Part shown: one piece after another, positions 3,846-28,658 of the stretch
How positions within the stretch are numbered: the first letter of the stretch is position 1
How the letters are laid out: every line of letters starts with the position of its first letter
Origin: Escherichia phage mEp010
Length of the DNA stretch: 53,791 nucleotides
Reading direction: 5' to 3' (one strand)
Sequence record: PP180001
The notes under the pieces: generated by a model
Told to the model about the DNA's origin: nothing
Databases searched by the model: none
The model's input: only the letters and a program-made list of their open reading frames with translations
Program-made: the position numbers and the translations under genes

Positions 3846-3888
3846 CAGAAAGCGGTAAACTTTCCGGTAAGCCGTTTGCTCATATTGA

Positions 3889-5304
3889 TTAAAAAGATGT
3901 GTTATTCTGATTGTTTCGTTGGTTAAAACGGCTTGTGCGATGATTCATTGACTGAATACACGCTGCGGCTGCGCGCGCCTGGTCGCATGGCAAGATATTA
4001 CCGTTGTCATCAAACCGCTGGTAAACAGTTCCAGACTTACCATGACGGTTTTTTGACACAATGATTTCCATGTATTCGCGGGCAACAGACTGCTCGTCGT
4101 AATACCCATCGCGGTAAACCATGATTATTCTGTCGGCATCTTGCTCAAGGTTGCCGGAATCACGCAGATCAGAATTATTAGGGCGCTTGTTTGGTCGTTC
4201 CTCAACTCGTCGTGATAATTGCGCTAGCGCTAACACTGGAACGCGCAATTCTTTTGCCATCATCTTCAACGACCATGACAATTGCCCAACGGCGAGATCA
4301 TGACGTTCTGCCTTAGCCAGCTTCATCAACCCTATGTAGTCAATCATTACCATACCCAGGTTGGGATGTTCCTGTTTCATCCGTTCCGTGGTGGCGCGTA
4401 TTTCCTCAACCGTTAACTGCGACGCGTCAACGATCCACACATCAAGATTAGCAAGTGCGCTCATACCCTGTCCGACATGCGCCCAACCCTCATCATCAAG
4501 TTTTACCGGATTGCGCAGGCAGTCAGTTGATAAATTACCAGCGCCAGCAATGGCCCGCTCAGTCATCTGATCGAGTGACATTTCAAGCGTGAAGAGCAAA
4601 ACGCCAACCCGCTGTTCTTTACTGCCAGGGTAAGGGCGTTCAGCGGCTGCGCGGGCAATTGCCAGCGCCAACGCAGATTTACCAGACCCAGGGCGTCCGG
4701 CGAGAAGTACCAAATCAGTAGCGTTAATGCCGCCCAACATTTCGTCGAGTGGTTCTATACCTGTTTTGATGTTGTCAGAATTGACACCGCATTCCATGCG
4801 CTTGCTTAAAACATCCGTATATTCCTGTACCGCATCGCGCAACAGAACCGGAATGATCTTATCTTTCGTTACCTTTAATTTTGAATACCGGGAATCAAAA
4901 TCTTTCATCGTCTCTTTGACGACCTCAAGCGTCCCCGTTTCCAGTTTGTAGCGCATATCGTCGATGAGTTCCAACATCTGCCGCCGCTGGTGCTCTTCAC
5001 GTAGTAGCTGTGCGTATCCCTTCAGGTTGGCAGCAGACGGGCACGATCGCGCCGTTTGCATTAGCGGTACGAAATTTTCATTACCAATCTCATCACCTAC
5101 CAGCAATGCATCGATGAGGTTCCTGTTTCTTGCTTGCGCCCGGATAATTTCAAAAGCCCGCTTATACAGCGGAATAGTGAACACTTCAGGATCAAGCGTA
5201 GCGAGAACATCTTGCGCGTTAGGAGTAAGGCCGCCCAACAGCAGCCCACCGATAACTGACGCCTCACGTTCCTGCCGTAGTGAGTTTATTTGCTCAGTTA
5301 CCAT
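3889..5304 (-). CDS. Replicative DNA helicase, DnaB family
   Basis: 471 aa; Walker A GRPGSGKSALALAIA, Walker B VMIDYIGLM, DnaB N-terminal domain. Confidence 0.9.
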   Translation of the reverse strand: MVTEQINSLRQEREASVIGGLLLGGLTPNAQDVLATLDPEVFTIPLYKRAFEIIRAQARNRNLIDALLVGDEIGNENFVPLMQTARSCPSAANLKGYAQLLREEHQRRQMLELIDDMRYKLETGTLEVVKETMKDFDSRYSKLKVTKDKIIPVLLRDAVQEYTDVLSKRMECGVNSDNIKTGIEPLDEMLGGINATDLVLLAGRPGSGKSALALAIARAAAERPYPGSKEQRVGVLLFTLEMSLDQMTERAIAGAGNLSTDCLRNPVKLDDEGWAHVGQGMSALANLDVWIVDASQLTVEEIRATTERMKQEHPNLGMVMIDYIGLMKLAKAERHDLAVGQLSWSLKMMAKELRVPVLALAQLSRRVEERPNKRPNNSDLRDSGNLEQDADRIIMVYRDGYYDEQSVAREYMEIIVSKNRHGKSGTVYQRFDDNGNILPCDQARAAAACIQSMNHRTSRFNQRNNQNNTSF

Positions 5305-11882: not shown

Positions 11883-12107
11883 ATGATCGAAGATAAAGAA
11901 GTTGACGTAGAAATTCCTGACAGCGCTGATGAGCTTATCACTTTCGGCGGCGGGCTGTACGAATTCGAGACGTCTGCGGGCTGGGTTGATAAATGGCCTT
12001 TCCCTACTCGACAGGAATTAAGCGAACGTAAATCATTTGGCGAAGATGCCGAACGCCTGGCGAATAATAAATGGCTGGATAAATTCATTGCGGAGGGTGG
12101 CAAATGA
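11883..12107 (+). CDS. Hypothetical protein (74 aa, acidic)
   Basis: Track ORF in rightward early operon. Confidence 0.5.
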   Translation: MIEDKEVDVEIPDSADELITFGGGLYEFETSAGWVDKWPFPTRQELSERKSFGEDAERLANNKWLDKFIAEGGK

Positions 12108-12217
12108 ATATTGCAAAAATTGCCGCATTGGCGGCGGCGTTGGCTGTCGCGGCGATATATCTTAGCGTATCGCTTTATATTACGGTGGCGATCATCAAGC
12201 TGATTACTACTATGTGA
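12104..12217 (+). CDS. Possible 37-aa single-pass membrane peptide
   Basis: ATGA-overlapped with upstream stop; MNIAKIAALAAALAVAAIYLSVSLYITVAIIKLITTM. Confidence 0.35.
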   Translation: MNIAKIAALAAALAVAAIYLSVSLYITVAIIKLITTM

Positions 12218-12225
12218 GGTTAATC

Positions 12226-12345
12226 ATGAAAGTCGGTAAGGATATTGTGACTGTAGCGTTTTGCATTATTTGCTTCCTGTTTGTGGTTGTTTTTTGTGGC
12301 GCATTTGCTGCGCTGGTTAGCTTTATTTTTAGAGGGTTGCTGTGA
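12226..12345 (+). CDS. Possible 39-aa single-pass membrane peptide
   Basis: 8 nt after previous stop; stop overlaps next gene start; MKVGKDIVTVAFCIICFLFVVVFCGAFAALVSFIFRGLL. Confidence 0.35.
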   Translation: MKVGKDIVTVAFCIICFLFVVVFCGAFAALVSFIFRGLL

Positions 12346-17499: not shown

Positions 17500-17676
17500 A
17501 TGCCTTTTGATAATTACCAATGGCATGACGACTATGAACGAGAAAGCGTCATGCGTGCAATGTGCAATGTATGCAGCACGAAGAAAGGAGACTGCAACGA
17601 GTGCAACGAATGTTTAGATCATTGGCTAAGGGCCGGACACGCCGAAAGGCTGAACGAAACAGAGAATCAAAAATAA
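17500..17676 (+). CDS. Small Cys-rich protein (58 aa; CNVC..CNECNEC)
   Basis: AAGGAG SD 7 nt upstream; below ORF-track cut-off; immediately upstream of ninG. Confidence 0.4.
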   Translation: MPFDNYQWHDDYERESVMRAMCNVCSTKKGDCNECNECLDHWLRAGHAERLNETENQK

Positions 17677-17690
17677 TCGGGGTGGTTTTT

Positions 17691-18296
17691 ATGAAAAACC
17701 CTAAAAAACCCATAAAACGCCGTTGCAAATGCTGCGGCGTTTTTTTTGAGCCTAAATATCACAATCAAACGTGGTGCAGTGATGAATGTCTGGAAGAACT
17801 GAAGTTTGACCAGCTATGCCGCGACCGTGAAAAGGCTATGAAGGCTATGGAGCGGAAGAAACGCCGTGATAGCCAGAGGGAAGAACGCAACCGGAAGCGG
17901 AAGCAGTTACACCCGCGAAGTTACTGGATTCACCAGGCGCAAACTGTATTTAACGCATACATACGCGAACGTGATGCAGGACAACCGTGTATATCTTGCG
18001 GGACTTACTACGGTGATCAATGCGGTTGGGATGCTGGGCATTACAGGACAGTAGCGGCGGCTGGGCATCTTCGATTCAACGAGGATAACGTGCATCGTCA
18101 ATGCAAACAATGCAATCAGAGACTGGACGGTAACATATCTGCTTATCGCCCAGCGCTGATTAGAAAAATTGGCCTGGCTAGGGTGGAAGCGCTGGAGAAC
18201 AACAACGAAATTCACAAATGGACTATCGAAGAATGTAAGGAGATCGCAAAAGTTTATCAGGCTAAGTTAAACGCCTTAAGGAGAAAGGCGGCATGA
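17691..18296 (+). CDS. ninG: NinG / Rap recombination protein
   Basis: Close match to lambda NinG (RRCK..C...F.P, PRSYWI.QAQ..NA.IRERD...PCISCGT, WDAGHYRT.AAA..LRFNE.N.H.QC..CN, WTIEECK); Met44 of track ORF 17562-18296. Confidence 0.9.
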   Translation: MKNPKKPIKRRCKCCGVFFEPKYHNQTWCSDECLEELKFDQLCRDREKAMKAMERKKRRDSQREERNRKRKQLHPRSYWIHQAQTVFNAYIRERDAGQPCISCGTYYGDQCGWDAGHYRTVAAAGHLRFNEDNVHRQCKQCNQRLDGNISAYRPALIRKIGLARVEALENNNEIHKWTIEECKEIAKVYQAKLNALRRKAA

Positions 18297-25290: not shown

Positions 25291-25491
25291 ATGTTCGACA
25301 GAATACGGGAGGCGTGTGCGTATGTGACTGGGGCCGTAACTGCTTTTTTCGGCGCTATAACCATCAATGACGTCGCTGTTTTCGTTGGTATCTTATCAAC
25401 CATAGGCACATTTGCCGTTAATTATTACTTCAAATCACAGGAGAACAAGCGGGCGCAAGAGGAACACGACGCGCGAATGGGGAATAAGTAA
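25291..25491 (+). CDS. Holin, two-TMD pinholin type (S21-like)
   Basis: 66 aa, two TM segments, C-terminus NYYFKSQENKRAQEE resembles phage 21 S; GGAGGA SD. Confidence 0.75.
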   Translation: MFDRIREACAYVTGAVTAFFGAITINDVAVFVGILSTIGTFAVNYYFKSQENKRAQEEHDARMGNK

Positions 25492-25983
25492 ATGATTAGC
25501 CAATCGCTGAAAAACAAGATTGTTGCGGCGGCGGCTGGTGGGGCGATCGCTATTGCGGCGGTGATGATTAAGCCATTAGAGGGCGTGGAATACGATCCTT
25601 ATCGTGATGTTGTTGGCGTATGGACTGTTTGCTACGGTCACACCGGAAAAGACATCATGCTTGGGAAGACTTACACGCAATCAGAATGCGATGCTTTGTT
25701 GAACAAAGATCTACATAAGACCGCAAAAGCGATTGACCCATATATCAAAGTCGAAATATCAGATTTTACCCGCGCTGCACTTTATTCATTCGCCTATAAC
25801 GTAGGCGCAACCAACTTCAAAACATCAACCTTATTAAAGCTACTCAATGACGGCAAGAAATCAGAGGCGTGCGCACAGCTTAAGCGCTGGGTATACGCTG
25901 GCGGTAAGAAGTGGCAAGGCCTGGTTAACCGCCGCGAGGTTGAATATGCCGTTTGCGAATGGGGTGAGAAATGGACAAGGTGA
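25492..25983 (+). CDS. SAR endolysin (GH24 lysozyme with N-terminal signal-anchor-release domain)
   Basis: Strong resemblance to phage 21 R: Gly/Ala-rich SAR helix, EGV.Y.PY.D.VGVWTVC.GHTG, YSF.YNVGA.NF.TSTLL. Confidence 0.9.
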
Positions 25984-26441
25984 AGACGTTAATCATCGCC
26001 GTTGTTGTTTGCATTATTGCCGGACTGATCGCCGTAACGTGTTATTACCAGGGTGAAACGGCAAGGTTACAGGAAGAAGTCACGGTGACGAAAGGCGCAC
26101 TGAAGACAGCAAGTAACACTATTCAGCAGATGAAGGAGCGATACGCCGAACTGTCAAAACTTGATAAGAGGTATCACGATGAGATTAAAGCTATCAGATC
26201 TGACATTGCCGATCTGCGCACTGGCATTGATAACGGCACTATCAGGCTGCGCGTCAACGCAATACCCGTGCGAGTGTCCGACTCCGCCGAATCCGCCAGC
26301 CGCATTGATGGAGCCTCCTGTAGACTCACTCCCGACGCTGAATCGGCTTATCTATCCCTCAGAGAACAACTAAAAGAGAAAGATGCGAAGATAACCGCGC
26401 TTCAGGGCTACATCAAAACACAGTGCTTACGCAAAGAATAA
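25971..26441 (+). CDS. Rz: Rz-type i-spanin
   Basis: 156 aa; N-terminal TM then coiled-coil periplasmic domain; follows endolysin. Confidence 0.75.
26179..26373 (+). CDS. Rz1: Rz1-type o-spanin lipoprotein, embedded in +1 frame inside Rz
   Basis: Lipobox LSGC, Pro-rich mature part; AAGAGG SD; Met7 of track ORF 26161-26373. Confidence 0.75.
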   Translation: MRLKLSDLTLPICALALITALSGCASTQYPCECPTPPNPPAALMEPPVDSLPTLNRLIYPSENN

Positions 26442-26777
26442 CAGTGCGTTGACGTGTCGCCGTTTCTGCCAGCCAGCCATAACCGGGCCAATCCTTCCCG
26501 CGAGCGACGGCGGAAATTCAAAAACACGTAATACCGGATCAACAGTCCCATTAACAGGTCGGGCGCTACCTGGGTAGAAGAAAGCGCCATTACTCACCTG
26601 CCACGCGTAGGACGAGCGCCCGGATCTGTTTATCAGAGATGTTAAGCAGGTCCAGTTTTATAAAATTCTGCAAACGGTACTCACTAAGCGCCGTTTTCAG
26701 TGTTTTATAGCTGTTTTCACTCCCTGCGGTGTCGAGTTTTGCGGGGGTTATATTTTTCAGGATAGAGGAATATTCTG

Positions 26778-27335
26778 ATGGCTAAGGGTAAAGGCATTAA
26801 GTTGCCTCAATTCAAAGTCCCGCTCTTTGAGCATACAACAGTTTTCTTCTGCCCGACTCGCGACATGTTCTATGAATTTTGCGAAAAGGCAGGGATTCCG
26901 ATCGAACCTGATTTTGAACTGGCTGGAGGATTAACACTTACTTGCACTGGCGAGAAAGGCGGTAACTTCTACGTGATCGCAGTATTCGATAATGAGCTTG
27001 GTACGCTGGTCCATGAAGCGGCCCACACTACGTTCCACGTTTTAAGTGATGTAGGCGTCGTGGCGACCACTGATCCCAGCCATCCGGCAAACGAGACTTA
27101 TGCTTACATGGTAGGCCGTATCTTTGATGCTTTCTTCCCCATCCTGGCAGAATCAAATGAAGCACAGGTGGCAGCAATGCAGGCAGAAGAAATAACCGAA
27201 CGTCTTAGCGCACAAGAGGCAAGGGATATTGCTAATGAGGCAAAAGACAAGCAAAAGCCAGCTAAGAAAGGCAAACGTAAGCCTAAAGCAAAAGAGGCGC
27301 TTGTGCCGCGTGTTATGAGCTTTAAACGGGGGTGA
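26778..27335 (+). CDS. Hypothetical protein with HExxH motif and Lys-rich C-terminal tail
   Basis: 185 aa; LVHEAAHTTFH; C-terminus KDKQKPAKKGKRKPKAK. Confidence 0.55.
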   Translation: MAKGKGIKLPQFKVPLFEHTTVFFCPTRDMFYEFCEKAGIPIEPDFELAGGLTLTCTGEKGGNFYVIAVFDNELGTLVHEAAHTTFHVLSDVGVVATTDPSHPANETYAYMVGRIFDAFFPILAESNEAQVAAMQAEEITERLSAQEARDIANEAKDKQKPAKKGKRKPKAKEALVPRVMSFKRG

Positions 27336-27337
27336 TT

Positions 27338-28162
27338 ATGGGTATCCTTCTGGTATGTGTATTTATTGCTTTAGTTGCGATGGAGGTATTGCTCCCCATT
27401 TGGGCGGCAACCTGGATGATGCAAGATGATTGACCCGCTCATTATCCTTTCTGCCTGCGTCGCTGTATGGCTGGCGATCATGATATTCATTGAAAGTTAA
27501 AGGTTCTCATCATGAATATTTACGATCTAATCTGGTGGTCGTTGGTCGCCGTCATTATCTATTTCTGGTGGAAGAATGTTGTATAGGTGACGGCATGGAT
27601 ATATTCGAATTACTGGCGATTATGTTCGGAATGATGTTAAGCATTGTCGCCATAATTATCATCATCGGCCTTGTTATGGGTAGCATCAAATGAACGCATA
27701 CGAAATGCTATTGCTGGTGGCTGTTATTACAGTTATCGCCGTAGATTTTTATCGAGGGTTGAAAAGATGAGAGAAGCAGACTTCTTTTGCATGATTATAG
27801 TGATCGTCATCGTTGCCGTGCTTTTAAGCGTTAACTGAATCGCAGGAGGTTAAAAATGAAATTGCTTGATTTCTTTTTCCTGATTGTTGCGATTGTTCTT
27901 ACCATGACCGCGCTGACTCAATAGGTGAATATATGGAAACTATCGAAGCAGTATTATTCGTGTGCATCGCTGCGGTTGTTATTGTTGGGTTTATTATCAA
28001 TGTCTGACGTCGATTTCTTAATCATAGCTATAAGTTCGCTGTTAGTCGTTATCGTTTTCTTCGCATAAAGGGTAAGCAATGAAAGAGCTATTCGACTGGT
28101 TGGAAGTATTAACATACTGCGCAAGTTTTGTGGCTTGCGTATATATCATCAATAAATATTGA
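27338..28162 (+). other. Tandem array of ten micro-ORFs (22-32 codons each) encoding paralogous single-pass membrane micropeptides
   Basis: ORFs 27338-27433, 27426-27500, 27512-27586, 27595-27693, 27690-27770, 27767-27838, 27856-27924, 27933-28007, 28000-28068, 28079-28162; together fill the 837-bp gap exactly; SD sequences and ATGA couplings. Confidence 0.6.
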
Positions 28163-28172
28163 GAGGTGAATT

Positions 28173-28658
28173 ATGGCCCGCACTAAAAAGGCAAAAGCTG
28201 ACGATAAAAAGCCAGCCGCAAAAAGGGTGGGCCGTCCGCATGGTTATACCGAAGAAAAAGCATTAGAAATCTGTGAGCTGGTGGCGGACGGTCAGAGTGT
28301 TAACAAAATTTCGAAGATGCCTGGTATGCCTACCCGTTCAACAATTCTTAAATGGTTCAGAGACGTGCCGGAATTCTCGGACATGTACATGCGCGCGAAG
28401 GAAATCGGCTTCGAGGTGTTAGCTGATGAGATCCTCGATATAGCTGATGATGCTAAGAACGTTGATAAAGACCAACTACGCCGCCACCAACTAATGATTG
28501 AAACGCGTAAATGGTTACTGGCAAAACTGCAACCGCGCAAATATGGCGAACGCGTCACACAGGAGATCGTCGGCAACAAGGAAGAAGCGCCCGTCCAGGT
28601 TGAAGTCACGAAAGAAGAGATCGCCCGCATCGTCCAGGAAGTAGAAGACGAGGTGTGA
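28173..28658 (+). CDS. Terminase small subunit
   Basis: 161 aa; Lys-rich N-terminus, HTH (EICELVADGQSVNKISKMPGMPTRSTILKW), overlaps terL start. Confidence 0.8.
   Translation: MARTKKAKADDKKPAAKRVGRPHGYTEEKALEICELVADGQSVNKISKMPGMPTRSTILKWFRDVPEFSDMYMRAKEIGFEVLADEILDIADDAKNVDKDQLRRHQLMIETRKWLLAKLQPRKYGERVTQEIVGNKEEAPVQVEVTKEEIARIVQEVEDEV

Follow-up and report, generated by a model that had tools for sequence, protein, structure and literature searches.

In Escherichia phage mEp010 (record PP180001), 837 nucleotides (nt) separate the stop codon (27335) of a gene for a protein with an HExxH motif from the ATG (28173) of terS, the gene for the small terminase subunit, and this locus raises the question of whether the interval carries genes and what their products might do. 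Positions refer to the window, that is, the whole 53,791-nt stretch of mEp010 DNA that was analyzed. An earlier examination of the letters of the window, made before any database search (the sequence-only reading), had proposed that the gap is filled by ten plus-strand micro-genes of 22-32 codons. Ten plus-strand open reading frames (ORFs) with ATG starts, encoding 22-32 amino acids (aa) and occupying 771 of the 837 nt, were confirmed, as were all of the coordinates, overlaps, spacers and Shine-Dalgarno (SD) sequences that had been listed. Comparison with relatives indicated that this array very probably consists of protein-coding micro-genes under purifying selection.

Coding evidence for the micro-ORF array

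The ten ORFs are tightly packed: the ATGs at 27690 and 27767 overlap the preceding stop codons (ATGA), the ORFs that begin at 27426 and 28000 overlap their predecessors by 8 nt, and the remaining junctions have spacers of 8-17 nt. The SD sequence GGGGGTGA precedes 27338 and contains the TGA stop codon of the HExxH gene, AGGAGG precedes 27856, and TAGGTGA precedes both 27595 and 27933. Several stop codons within the array are likewise embedded in the SD sequence of the next gene (TAGGTGA-N4-ATG). The calculated SD pairing energy averaged -5.25 kcal/mol for the ten called starts versus -2.2 for the 14 other ATGs in the gap (Mann-Whitney p=0.007). A 67-aa ORF with a TTG start (27490-27693), which the sequence-only reading had set aside as an artefact, proved to be ORF4 with an in-frame 5' extension, which overlaps ORF3 in a different frame. 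In one relative (L030), the counterpart of ORF4 begins 3 nt past the preceding stop codon, so that such an extension is impossible there.

The window, three phage records and 46 IMG/VR contigs, fetched through terS, made up the comparison set of 50 genomes. All 50 carry micro-ORFs in the slot upstream of terS, where the sequence-only reading had suggested that related phages be searched: the gap measures 318-1154 nt and is tiled to 78-95% by 3-13 plus-strand micro-ORFs with a mean grand average of hydropathy of 1.2-1.8, and most genomes retain 8-11 genes. Clustering of the products gave about 20 hydrophobic peptide families and a few artefacts of wrong-frame calls. Each family is present in at most one copy per genome and in the order (12/9/14/21/20)-2-(18/15)-1-7-8-4-11-0-5-6-10-13-3-(16), the window array being 21-1-7-8-4-11-0-5-6-3.

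Substitutions between orthologues are frame-specific, with 117, 71 and 214 variable sites at the first, second and third codon positions, respectively. The pooled ratio of nonsynonymous to synonymous polymorphism (pN/pS) was 0.24 in the called frames versus 0.95 and 1.53 in the shifted frames. Values for 16 individual families ranged from 0.09 to 0.37, indicating purifying selection, with the HExxH gene (0.09) and terS (0.11) as references. Despite a pS of ~0.27 among cassette copies, 440 of 478 homologous copies in the 50 genomes (92%) are intact ORFs of the expected length, and families 3, 4, 1, 0 and 2 are each present in 44-49 genomes. Starts and frames are kept in most copies, contrary to the loss of conservation that the sequence-only reading had named as grounds for giving it up.

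The array region is T-rich, with a GC content of 0.38-0.41 and a negative AT skew. In 2000 dinucleotide-preserving shuffles of the interval, ten or more chained ORFs never arose (maximum 8), and the nine strongly hydrophobic ORFs observed compare with a shuffle mean of 0.57 and a maximum of 3. These results imply that T-richness alone does not account for the pattern. The minus strand of the interval holds six ORFs, none of them hydrophobic, and of the 16 hydrophobic micro-ORFs that lie outside long ORFs in the 53.8-kb window, eight fall inside the 0.84-kb array stretch. Together with the frame-specific pN/pS and the intact copies, the shuffles bear out the claim that these are genuine micro-genes missed by ORF cut-offs.

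Not every copy is intact. The start codon of family 6 (ORF9) is replaced by ACG in four related genomes, and decayed or fused copies were found in L006, L027, L030, L034 and L037. These include a 60-aa fusion in L037 that joins families 2 and 1 by read-through (clustered as family 23), a family-8 gene joined to an out-of-frame family-4 remnant in L027, a truncated family-13 remnant in L030, and frameshifted copies in L006 and L034. The viable phage mEp021 has five members only, which, with the decayed copies, implies that individual members are dispensable. ORF1 (family 21) was found within the comparison set only in the window and in the near-identical phage mEp554, and an identical peptide is recorded for mEp010.

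Searches with the ten peptides and representatives of the other families returned nothing significant from PHROGs, Pfam, NCBIfam or PADLOC. Holin/antiholin modulation, exclusion and toxin-like action, the roles put forward in the sequence-only reading, drew no significant match to a holin, toxin or defence family. The sole family match, to phrog_920, was weak (E=0.04) and came from family 13, which the window lacks; a protein search with this family, the only one of at least 40 aa, returned close relatives alone (70-91% identity). Rfam, tRNA and tandem-repeat scans of the region were all empty. The exact sequences of eight of the ten peptides are missing from a collection of 15 billion proteins, and ORF1 and ORF4 occur there as "hypothetical protein" of mEp010/mEp554. 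The PHANOTATE annotation of mEp554 (L001, PP180005.1; 3039-3768) has ORF1 and ORF4 right, draws three ORFs that are too long or in the wrong frame over ORF3, ORF5/6 and ORF8/9, and leaves out the rest; in the mEp021 record, the interval is wholly unannotated. The locus is thus a concrete instance of how length cut-offs lose coding capacity. Small membrane proteins are common and under-annotated, and they are known from phages; what appears to be undescribed is an array of 3-13 coupled genes, each of 20-35 codons, that varies by cassette. A literature search found no paper on such a micropeptide array and no described phage operon in which ten coupled genes, consecutive and 22-32 codons long, differ between close relatives by entire gene cassettes, in agreement with the statement of the sequence-only reading that it knew of no described function of this kind.

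At the DNA level, the array interval is 98.6% identical to that of mEp554 and otherwise matches five phage records only, all mEp021-like; a distant search across the phage collection likewise matched only the six records of the mEpimmI group. The interval was also found in prophages of 35 of 5426 complete E. coli genomes, and a pattern scan of IMG/VR for the family-4 gene led again to mEpimmI phages. The source phage is therefore a gut coliphage of the mEpimmI group, whose members are Nus-dependent yet non-lambdoid (PMC11893012), and the label "lambdoid" in the sequence-only reading has to be dropped. The array region is not discussed in the paper describing that group (PMC11893012). The array looks specific to the mEpimmI group, sitting in what looks like a general accessory slot.

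Table 1. Coordinates of the micro-ORF array and of its flanking features in the mEp010 window; intact copies are counted in the 50-genome comparison set
Feature	Coordinates	Strand	Product or length	Family and remarks
ORF1	27338..27433	+	MGILLVCVFIALVAMEVLLPIWAATWMMQDD, 31 aa	family 21; alternative "first gene"; SD -9.9 kcal/mol
ORF2	27426..27500	+	MIDPLIILSACVAVWLAIMIFIES, 24 aa	family 1, core; intact in 47/50; pN/pS 0.30
ORF3	27512..27586	+	MNIYDLIWWSLVAVIIYFWWKNVV, 24 aa	family 7; intact in 31; pN/pS 0.24; related to families 15 and 4
ORF4	27595..27693	+	MDIFELLAIMFGMMLSIVAIIIIIGLVMGSIK, 32 aa	family 8; pN/pS 0.12; annotated as mEp554_75, hypothetical protein
ORF5	27690..27770	+	MNAYEMLLLVAVITVIAVDFYRGLKR, 26 aa	family 4, core; ATGA overlap with ORF4; intact in 48/50; pN/pS 0.27
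ORF6	27767..27838	+	MREADFFCMIIVIVIVAVLLSVN, 23 aa	family 11; ATGA overlap with ORF5; paralogue of ORF7; pN/pS 0.17
ORF7	27856..27924	+	MKLLDFFFLIVAIVLTMTALTQ, 22 aa	family 0, core; AGGAGG SD, -11.0 kcal/mol; intact in 46/50; pN/pS 0.13
ORF8	27933..28007	+	METIEAVLFVCIAAVVIVGFIINV, 24 aa	family 5; intact in 36; pN/pS 0.37
ORF9	28000..28068	+	MSDVDFLIIAISSLLVVIVFFA, 22 aa	family 6; 8-nt overlap with ORF8; intact in 33; pN/pS 0.29
ORF10	28079..28162	+	MKELFDWLEVLTYCASFVACVYIINKY, 27 aa	family 3; intact in 49/50; pN/pS 0.09
HExxH gene	26778..27335	+	185 aa	always immediately 5' of array; pN/pS 0.09
terS	28173..28658	+	Sf6-type small terminase subunit	Pfam PF20901, E=1.3e-37; pN/pS 0.11
Lysis cassette	25291-26441		class II holin, lysozyme and Rz/Rz1	complete
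Class II holin	25291-25491		66 aa	Pfam holin family
Endolysin (lysozyme)	25492-25983			N-terminal hydrophobic stretch; Pfam lysozyme family
Spacer from Rz/Rz1 to HExxH gene	26442..26777	+	non-coding	terminator-like hairpins; no predicted plus-strand promoter

Peptide design and cassette organization

The peptides share a common design: the N-tail is acidic (nine of the ten window ORFs), a single helix is hydrophobic throughout, and the C-tail is neutral or basic. An Asp or Glu lies within residues 2-7 in 19 of 22 families (permutation mean 8.7, maximum 17, 10,000 trials), and the exceptions are alternative first genes, including ORF1 (MGILLVC...). The formula of the sequence-only reading (Met, polar residues, Asp/Glu, helix) consequently fits every window ORF except ORF1, which has no acidic N-tail. 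Net charge summed over families is -23 for the N-tails and +10 for the C-tails. The best 17-residue hydrophobic windows are comparable to those of YohP, KdpF and IbsC, with ORFs 3, 5 and 10 weaker. Lysines are nearly absent inside the helices, conservation is alike in tails and core, and aromatic and polar helix positions are often invariant. The charge permutation test and the hydrophobicity support the notion of single-pass membrane peptides of shared design, and the products are probably membrane-inserted single-helix peptides.

Given the positive-inside rule, the acidic N-tails and basic C-tails predict a single-pass topology with the N terminus outside and the C terminus inside. Insertion would be post-translational, through the signal recognition particle (SRP) with YidC or SecYEG, and the membrane potential might help the acidic tail to cross, much as it drives translocation of the acidic N-tail of the Pf3 coat protein. 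For very small membrane proteins, post-translational insertion via SRP with YidC or SecYEG and mRNA targeting have both been described (PMC12648545).

Two known groups of small peptides invite comparison at this level. Like the Pf3 coat protein and M13 procoat, the array peptides are phage-encoded and single-span, with a predicted outward acidic N-tail and inward basic C-tail. The YidC-inserted Pf3 coat has this single-span arrangement, acidic N-tail out and basic C-tail in. The Pf3 and M13 coats, however, are 44-50-aa virion proteins of filamentous phages encoded by single genes, whereas the array specifies ten peptides of 22-32 aa in a tailed temperate phage with a membrane-free virion. In the psm-alpha (S. 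aureus) and aureocin A70 operons of Gram-positive bacteria, leaderless peptides of 20-30 aa are encoded consecutively, and the array resembles these operons in having several such peptides in series. By contrast, the phenol-soluble modulins (PSMs) and aureocin peptides are amphipathic or cationic and leave the cell via a dedicated exporter to act as cytolysins or bacteriocins, and the array peptides are uniformly hydrophobic with a low helical moment (0.2-0.7 versus 1.8-2.2 for PSM-alpha3 and delta-toxin, TisB being likewise amphipathic). No exporter gene was noticed when the neighbourhood was read, although no search aimed at exporters was made.

The genes behave as cassettes. Gain and loss take place exactly at start and stop boundaries, each event restoring an ATGA overlap or a TAGGTGA-N4-ATG junction. 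When family 11 is present, the family-4 stop codon overlaps the family-11 ATG (ATGA); when it is absent, the overlap is with the family-0 ATG instead, so the ORF6 unit is inserted or deleted precisely between start codons. Family 8 (ORF4) also shows whole-gene presence or absence with exact boundaries, dropping out between TAGGTGA and the next ATG. ORF10 is the most conserved member and is always the last before terS, except where a soluble family-16 gene intervenes.

The sequence-only reading had described the array as a tandemly duplicated paralogous family, and this holds in part. Families 11 and 0 (ORF6 and ORF7) have similar 5' ends and share the best internal repeat of the array, 29 nt at 76% DNA identity, a signature of local duplication and unequal crossing-over. 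Tandem Repeats Finder, on the other hand, detected no DNA-level tandem repeat in the array. In a test of 190 family pairs with shuffles that preserve the composition of N-tail, core and C-tail, 9% of pairs gave z>3, defining the subgroups {4,15,7}, {0,10,11} and {9,14}. Within the window, the test supports relatedness of ORF6/ORF7 (z 4.6 for family 11 against family 0) and of ORF3/ORF5, and most family pairs show no demonstrable relatedness. The genes would be accessory and modular, part of the set having arisen by local duplication and unequal crossing-over, with whole genes gained and lost while coupling to terS is kept.

The family-16 gene, found between the last membrane micro-gene and terS in five relatives (L013, L017, L030 (about 3847-3990), L050 and L031), encodes a soluble, acidic, helical product of 40-47 aa (e.g. 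MNDEELKIADEIRKTLDSAENNETIYLSEQEVEKMMNEFKLRFGKDD) and has its own GAGGTGA SD sequence; searches with the product gave no family match.

Expression and possible function

A simple consensus scan predicted no plus-strand promoter or terminator within the array, and the two minus-strand promoter-like matches found there are below shuffle expectation. In mEp021, a gene encoding a Q-type late regulator is located upstream, and the holin gene and the HExxH gene are each preceded by an annotated terminator. The absence of internal signals, the upstream hairpins and the Q gene of mEp021 together suggest that the array is read from an antiterminated late transcript, and late-operon, translationally coupled expression is fairly likely. 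The HExxH gene, the ten micro-genes, terS and terL would in that case form one coupled string, read only from the Q-dependent late transcript.

In the lysis cassette, Pfam confirms the lysozyme and holin families only; from its sequence type, we take the N terminus of the endolysin to be SAR-like (signal-anchor-release), and a SAR-like endolysin with a class II holin points to lysis by a pinholin and SAR endolysin, as in phage 21. The micropeptides might act within the cytoplasmic membrane of the infected cell, late, by helix-helix contacts or through their combined load. The process tuned would be the membrane state that times firing of the pinholin and SAR endolysin, with gene number as an evolvable dial. 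Such tuning of lysis or membrane state late in infection is our leading, though doubtful, guess at function. The chain as a whole, from coding through membrane insertion and late expression to lysis tuning, is offered tentatively as the best overall explanation, at somewhat under an even chance. Like pinholin S21, T4 RI and Mu releasin, the array peptides are small phage membrane proteins encoded near lysis genes and, it would appear, expressed late. Unlike holins and antiholins, they are much shorter, lack a charged cytoplasmic C-domain, show no holin homology in Pfam or PHROGs, and are encoded apart from the lysis cassette, across a spacer and the HExxH gene.

Several points weigh against this chain. 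The coding evidence is entirely comparative, no Ribo-seq or peptidomics data on array peptides having been found in the literature, and ORF1 lacks comparative support of its own, its copies being near-identical. The promoter scan was consensus-based, so late-only expression has to be read conditionally. The array does not lie directly beside the lysis region, where the sequence-only reading had placed it: 335 nt of hairpin-bearing spacer and the HExxH gene come between, and its coupling is to terS. The lysis cassette is, moreover, already complete. Holin identity is 91-100% and endolysin identity 90-100% in nearly all genomes (a divergent holin occurs in two and a divergent endolysin in one), whereas the array ranges from 3 to 13 genes, which argues against a tight one-to-one partnership. 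No similarity beyond chance was found between the peptides and the phage's own holin, SAR domain or Rz helices. Finally, the dispensability of individual members, seen in mEp021 and in the decayed copies, counts on the same side.

The two genomes with a divergent holin (56% identity), L014 and L034, also have the most unusual arrays, in which families 0, 5 and 6 are missing and families 30, 20 and 24, all of them rare, occur. As only two genomes are involved (n=2), the coincidence may reflect overall divergence only.

The most probable alternative is that the peptides are miniproteins, each docking onto the transmembrane (TM) domain of an inner-membrane protein of the host or of a rival and blocking or triggering it, the variable set being the outcome of an arms race. 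We consider this unlikely; the protein bound might be, for example, a transporter, a component of DNA entry or a defence effector anchored in the membrane. The locus would then be a novel type of phage accessory module, a reshufflable library of TM-docking cassettes, each phage holding 3-13 of ~20 families, and a prokaryotic counterpart of animal-virus TM miniproteins such as E5 of bovine papillomavirus (BPV), a proposal of the same low probability. Whole genes are present or absent between otherwise very similar phages, the slot is an accessory one that holds Dec in phages L and ST64T, and aromatic and polar residues are conserved sequence-specifically within the helices. One source labels a homologue of the neighbouring HExxH gene product "PolyVal metallopeptidase superfamily", and PolyVal-type metallopeptidases are a class proposed for counter-defence. 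There is also precedent for tiny TM viral proteins that act by helix binding, in BPV E5, which binds a larger membrane protein, and in the single-gene lysis proteins of phages, whose targets of inhibition are MraY or MurJ.

Among bacterial proteins, the small membrane regulators KdpF, AcrZ, MgtS, CydX and MgrB (20-50 aa, single helix) bind a larger membrane protein (PMC12648545). The array peptides resemble regulators of this kind and BPV E5 in being single-helix with similar hydrophobicity profiles. The regulators are, however, single genes with known partners, and no counterpart was found for a variable array of 3-13 gene cassettes. Expression of the array is seemingly late only, whereas exclusion is usually prophage-expressed and counter-defence early. 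Selection on the families is purifying rather than diversifying (pN/pS 0.09-0.37), and there is no PADLOC or other family match.

It is more improbable still that the ORFs are translated but functionless, the T-rich stretch being kept open so that ribosomes reach terS and serving as a nursery of de novo hydrophobic micro-genes, with selection merely keeping the products harmless. T-rich sequence can give rise to TM-like peptides (PMC11188072), terS coupling is kept through every gain and loss, the members are individually dispensable with some decayed, and the pooled pN/pS of 0.24 indicates weaker constraint than the 0.09-0.11 of the flanking genes. Yet a headful phage, as implied here by the Sf6-type terS, would be expected to shed 0.8 kb of useless DNA, and 8-11 genes are kept in most genomes, with five families in at least 44 of 50. 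Several members have pN/pS values of 0.09-0.17, as low as terS, and the conserved acidic N-tail design is no by-product of composition.

A slightly lower probability still attaches to generic membrane toxins of the Ibs or type I kind, which would depolarize or permeabilize the membrane on accumulation. Type I toxins are peptides of <70 aa with a TM region, occur in tandem copies and are often unannotated (PMC2887945). In size, hydrophobicity and tandem layout the array peptides recall them, being, like the products of ibs/sib, ldr/rdl and zor/orz of E. coli, of <70 aa, with one hydrophobic helix and encoded side by side; their hydrophobicity profile is near that of IbsC. Type I loci, in contrast, have an individual promoter, a long leader and an antisense RNA for each toxin, show DNA repeats that extend beyond the ORF, and are set apart from their neighbours (PMC2887945). 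The array genes instead abut or overlap in a coupled operon whose 8-17-nt spacers or overlaps offer neither space nor signals for a promoter or an antisense RNA of each gene, without DNA-level repeats and without any toxin match in NCBIfam or Pfam. Where lysis depends on a pinholin and SAR endolysin, uncontrolled depolarization triggers premature lysis, so that strong toxins in this operon, with its endolysin read as SAR-like, would be counter-selected.

The weakest alternative, a non-coding pac/cos segment or spacer with chance hydrophobic ORFs (also raised by the sequence-only reading), or the frameshifted remains of a single gene for a polytopic membrane protein, is scarcely credible: the interval is low in GC and T-rich and is mostly skipped by gene callers, but shuffles never reproduce its pattern, its substitutions are frame-specific with three-base periodicity, its copies are largely intact despite synonymous divergence, its variable length and content are incompatible with a fixed packaging site in a phage whose terS implies headful packaging, and each unit has its own ATG and SD sequence or ATGA coupling and is gained or lost independently, unlike what would be expected of a single decayed gene.

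Because phages of the mEp collection can be grown on E. coli K-12 and naturally occurring variants have 5, 10 or 11 genes, the role of the micropeptides late in infection, their insertion, and the birth and shuffling of their genes are directly testable.

Neighbouring genes and minor observations

The gene order is class II holin, lysozyme, Rz/Rz1, 335-nt spacer, HExxH gene, array, Sf6-type terS and terL, and the SD sequence of terS (GAGGTGA) is placed after the ORF10 stop codon. The spacer is richer in GC (~0.5), with terminator-like hairpins followed by T-runs near 26660-26760, and the mEp021 annotation has TERM_6 at the matching position; the stability of its overall fold is not unusual (z=-1.5). 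Minus-strand ORF fragments at 26427-26597 and 26590-26673 look like remnants of a broken gene, and a Pfam search with them gave no match.

The HExxH protein matches phrog_1365, a family of unknown function. Its homologues include Orf129 of phages L and ST64T (~43-46% identity), encoded in the equivalent slot before terS, and it shares with Orf129 of P22-like phages a conserved core with HExxH, DVGV and NETY.Y motifs. The protein additionally has an acidic helix that is mEp-specific, and its conserved tail is very basic (KPAKKGKRKPKAKEALVPRVMSFKRG). A PDB search with its AlphaFold2 model (predicted local distance difference test score 77.5) gave no significant match. In phages L, ST64T and epsilon34, the slot has the same position and a homologous HExxH gene upstream, but holds Dec (capsid decoration) or other soluble proteins and not hydrophobic micro-ORFs. 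A functional link between the array and the HExxH gene was considered and rejected: among 13 distant HExxH homologues from P22-like and other phages, none is followed by a micro-ORF array. P22 and HK620 have a second HExxH homologue (hkcC) between gene 16 and the tailspike gene, where the P22 records carry a sieA promoter feature.

Ipe, the haemolysis-inducing protein of mEp021, was considered as a possible array member and rejected, as it is encoded elsewhere (mEp021 17562-17795). Two further adjacent hydrophobic micro-ORFs of 37 and 39 aa lie on the plus strand of the window at 12104-12217 (MNIAKIAALAAALAVAAIYLSVSLYITVAIIKLITTM) and 12226-12345 (MKVGKDIVTVAFCIICFLFVVVFCGAFAALVSFIFRGLL); their N termini are basic, a charge design opposite to that of the array peptides. 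The first probably has its counterpart in mEp021_16 (12098-12211), a 37-aa "hypothetical protein" encoded directly downstream of the mEp021 repressor gene and a terminator.

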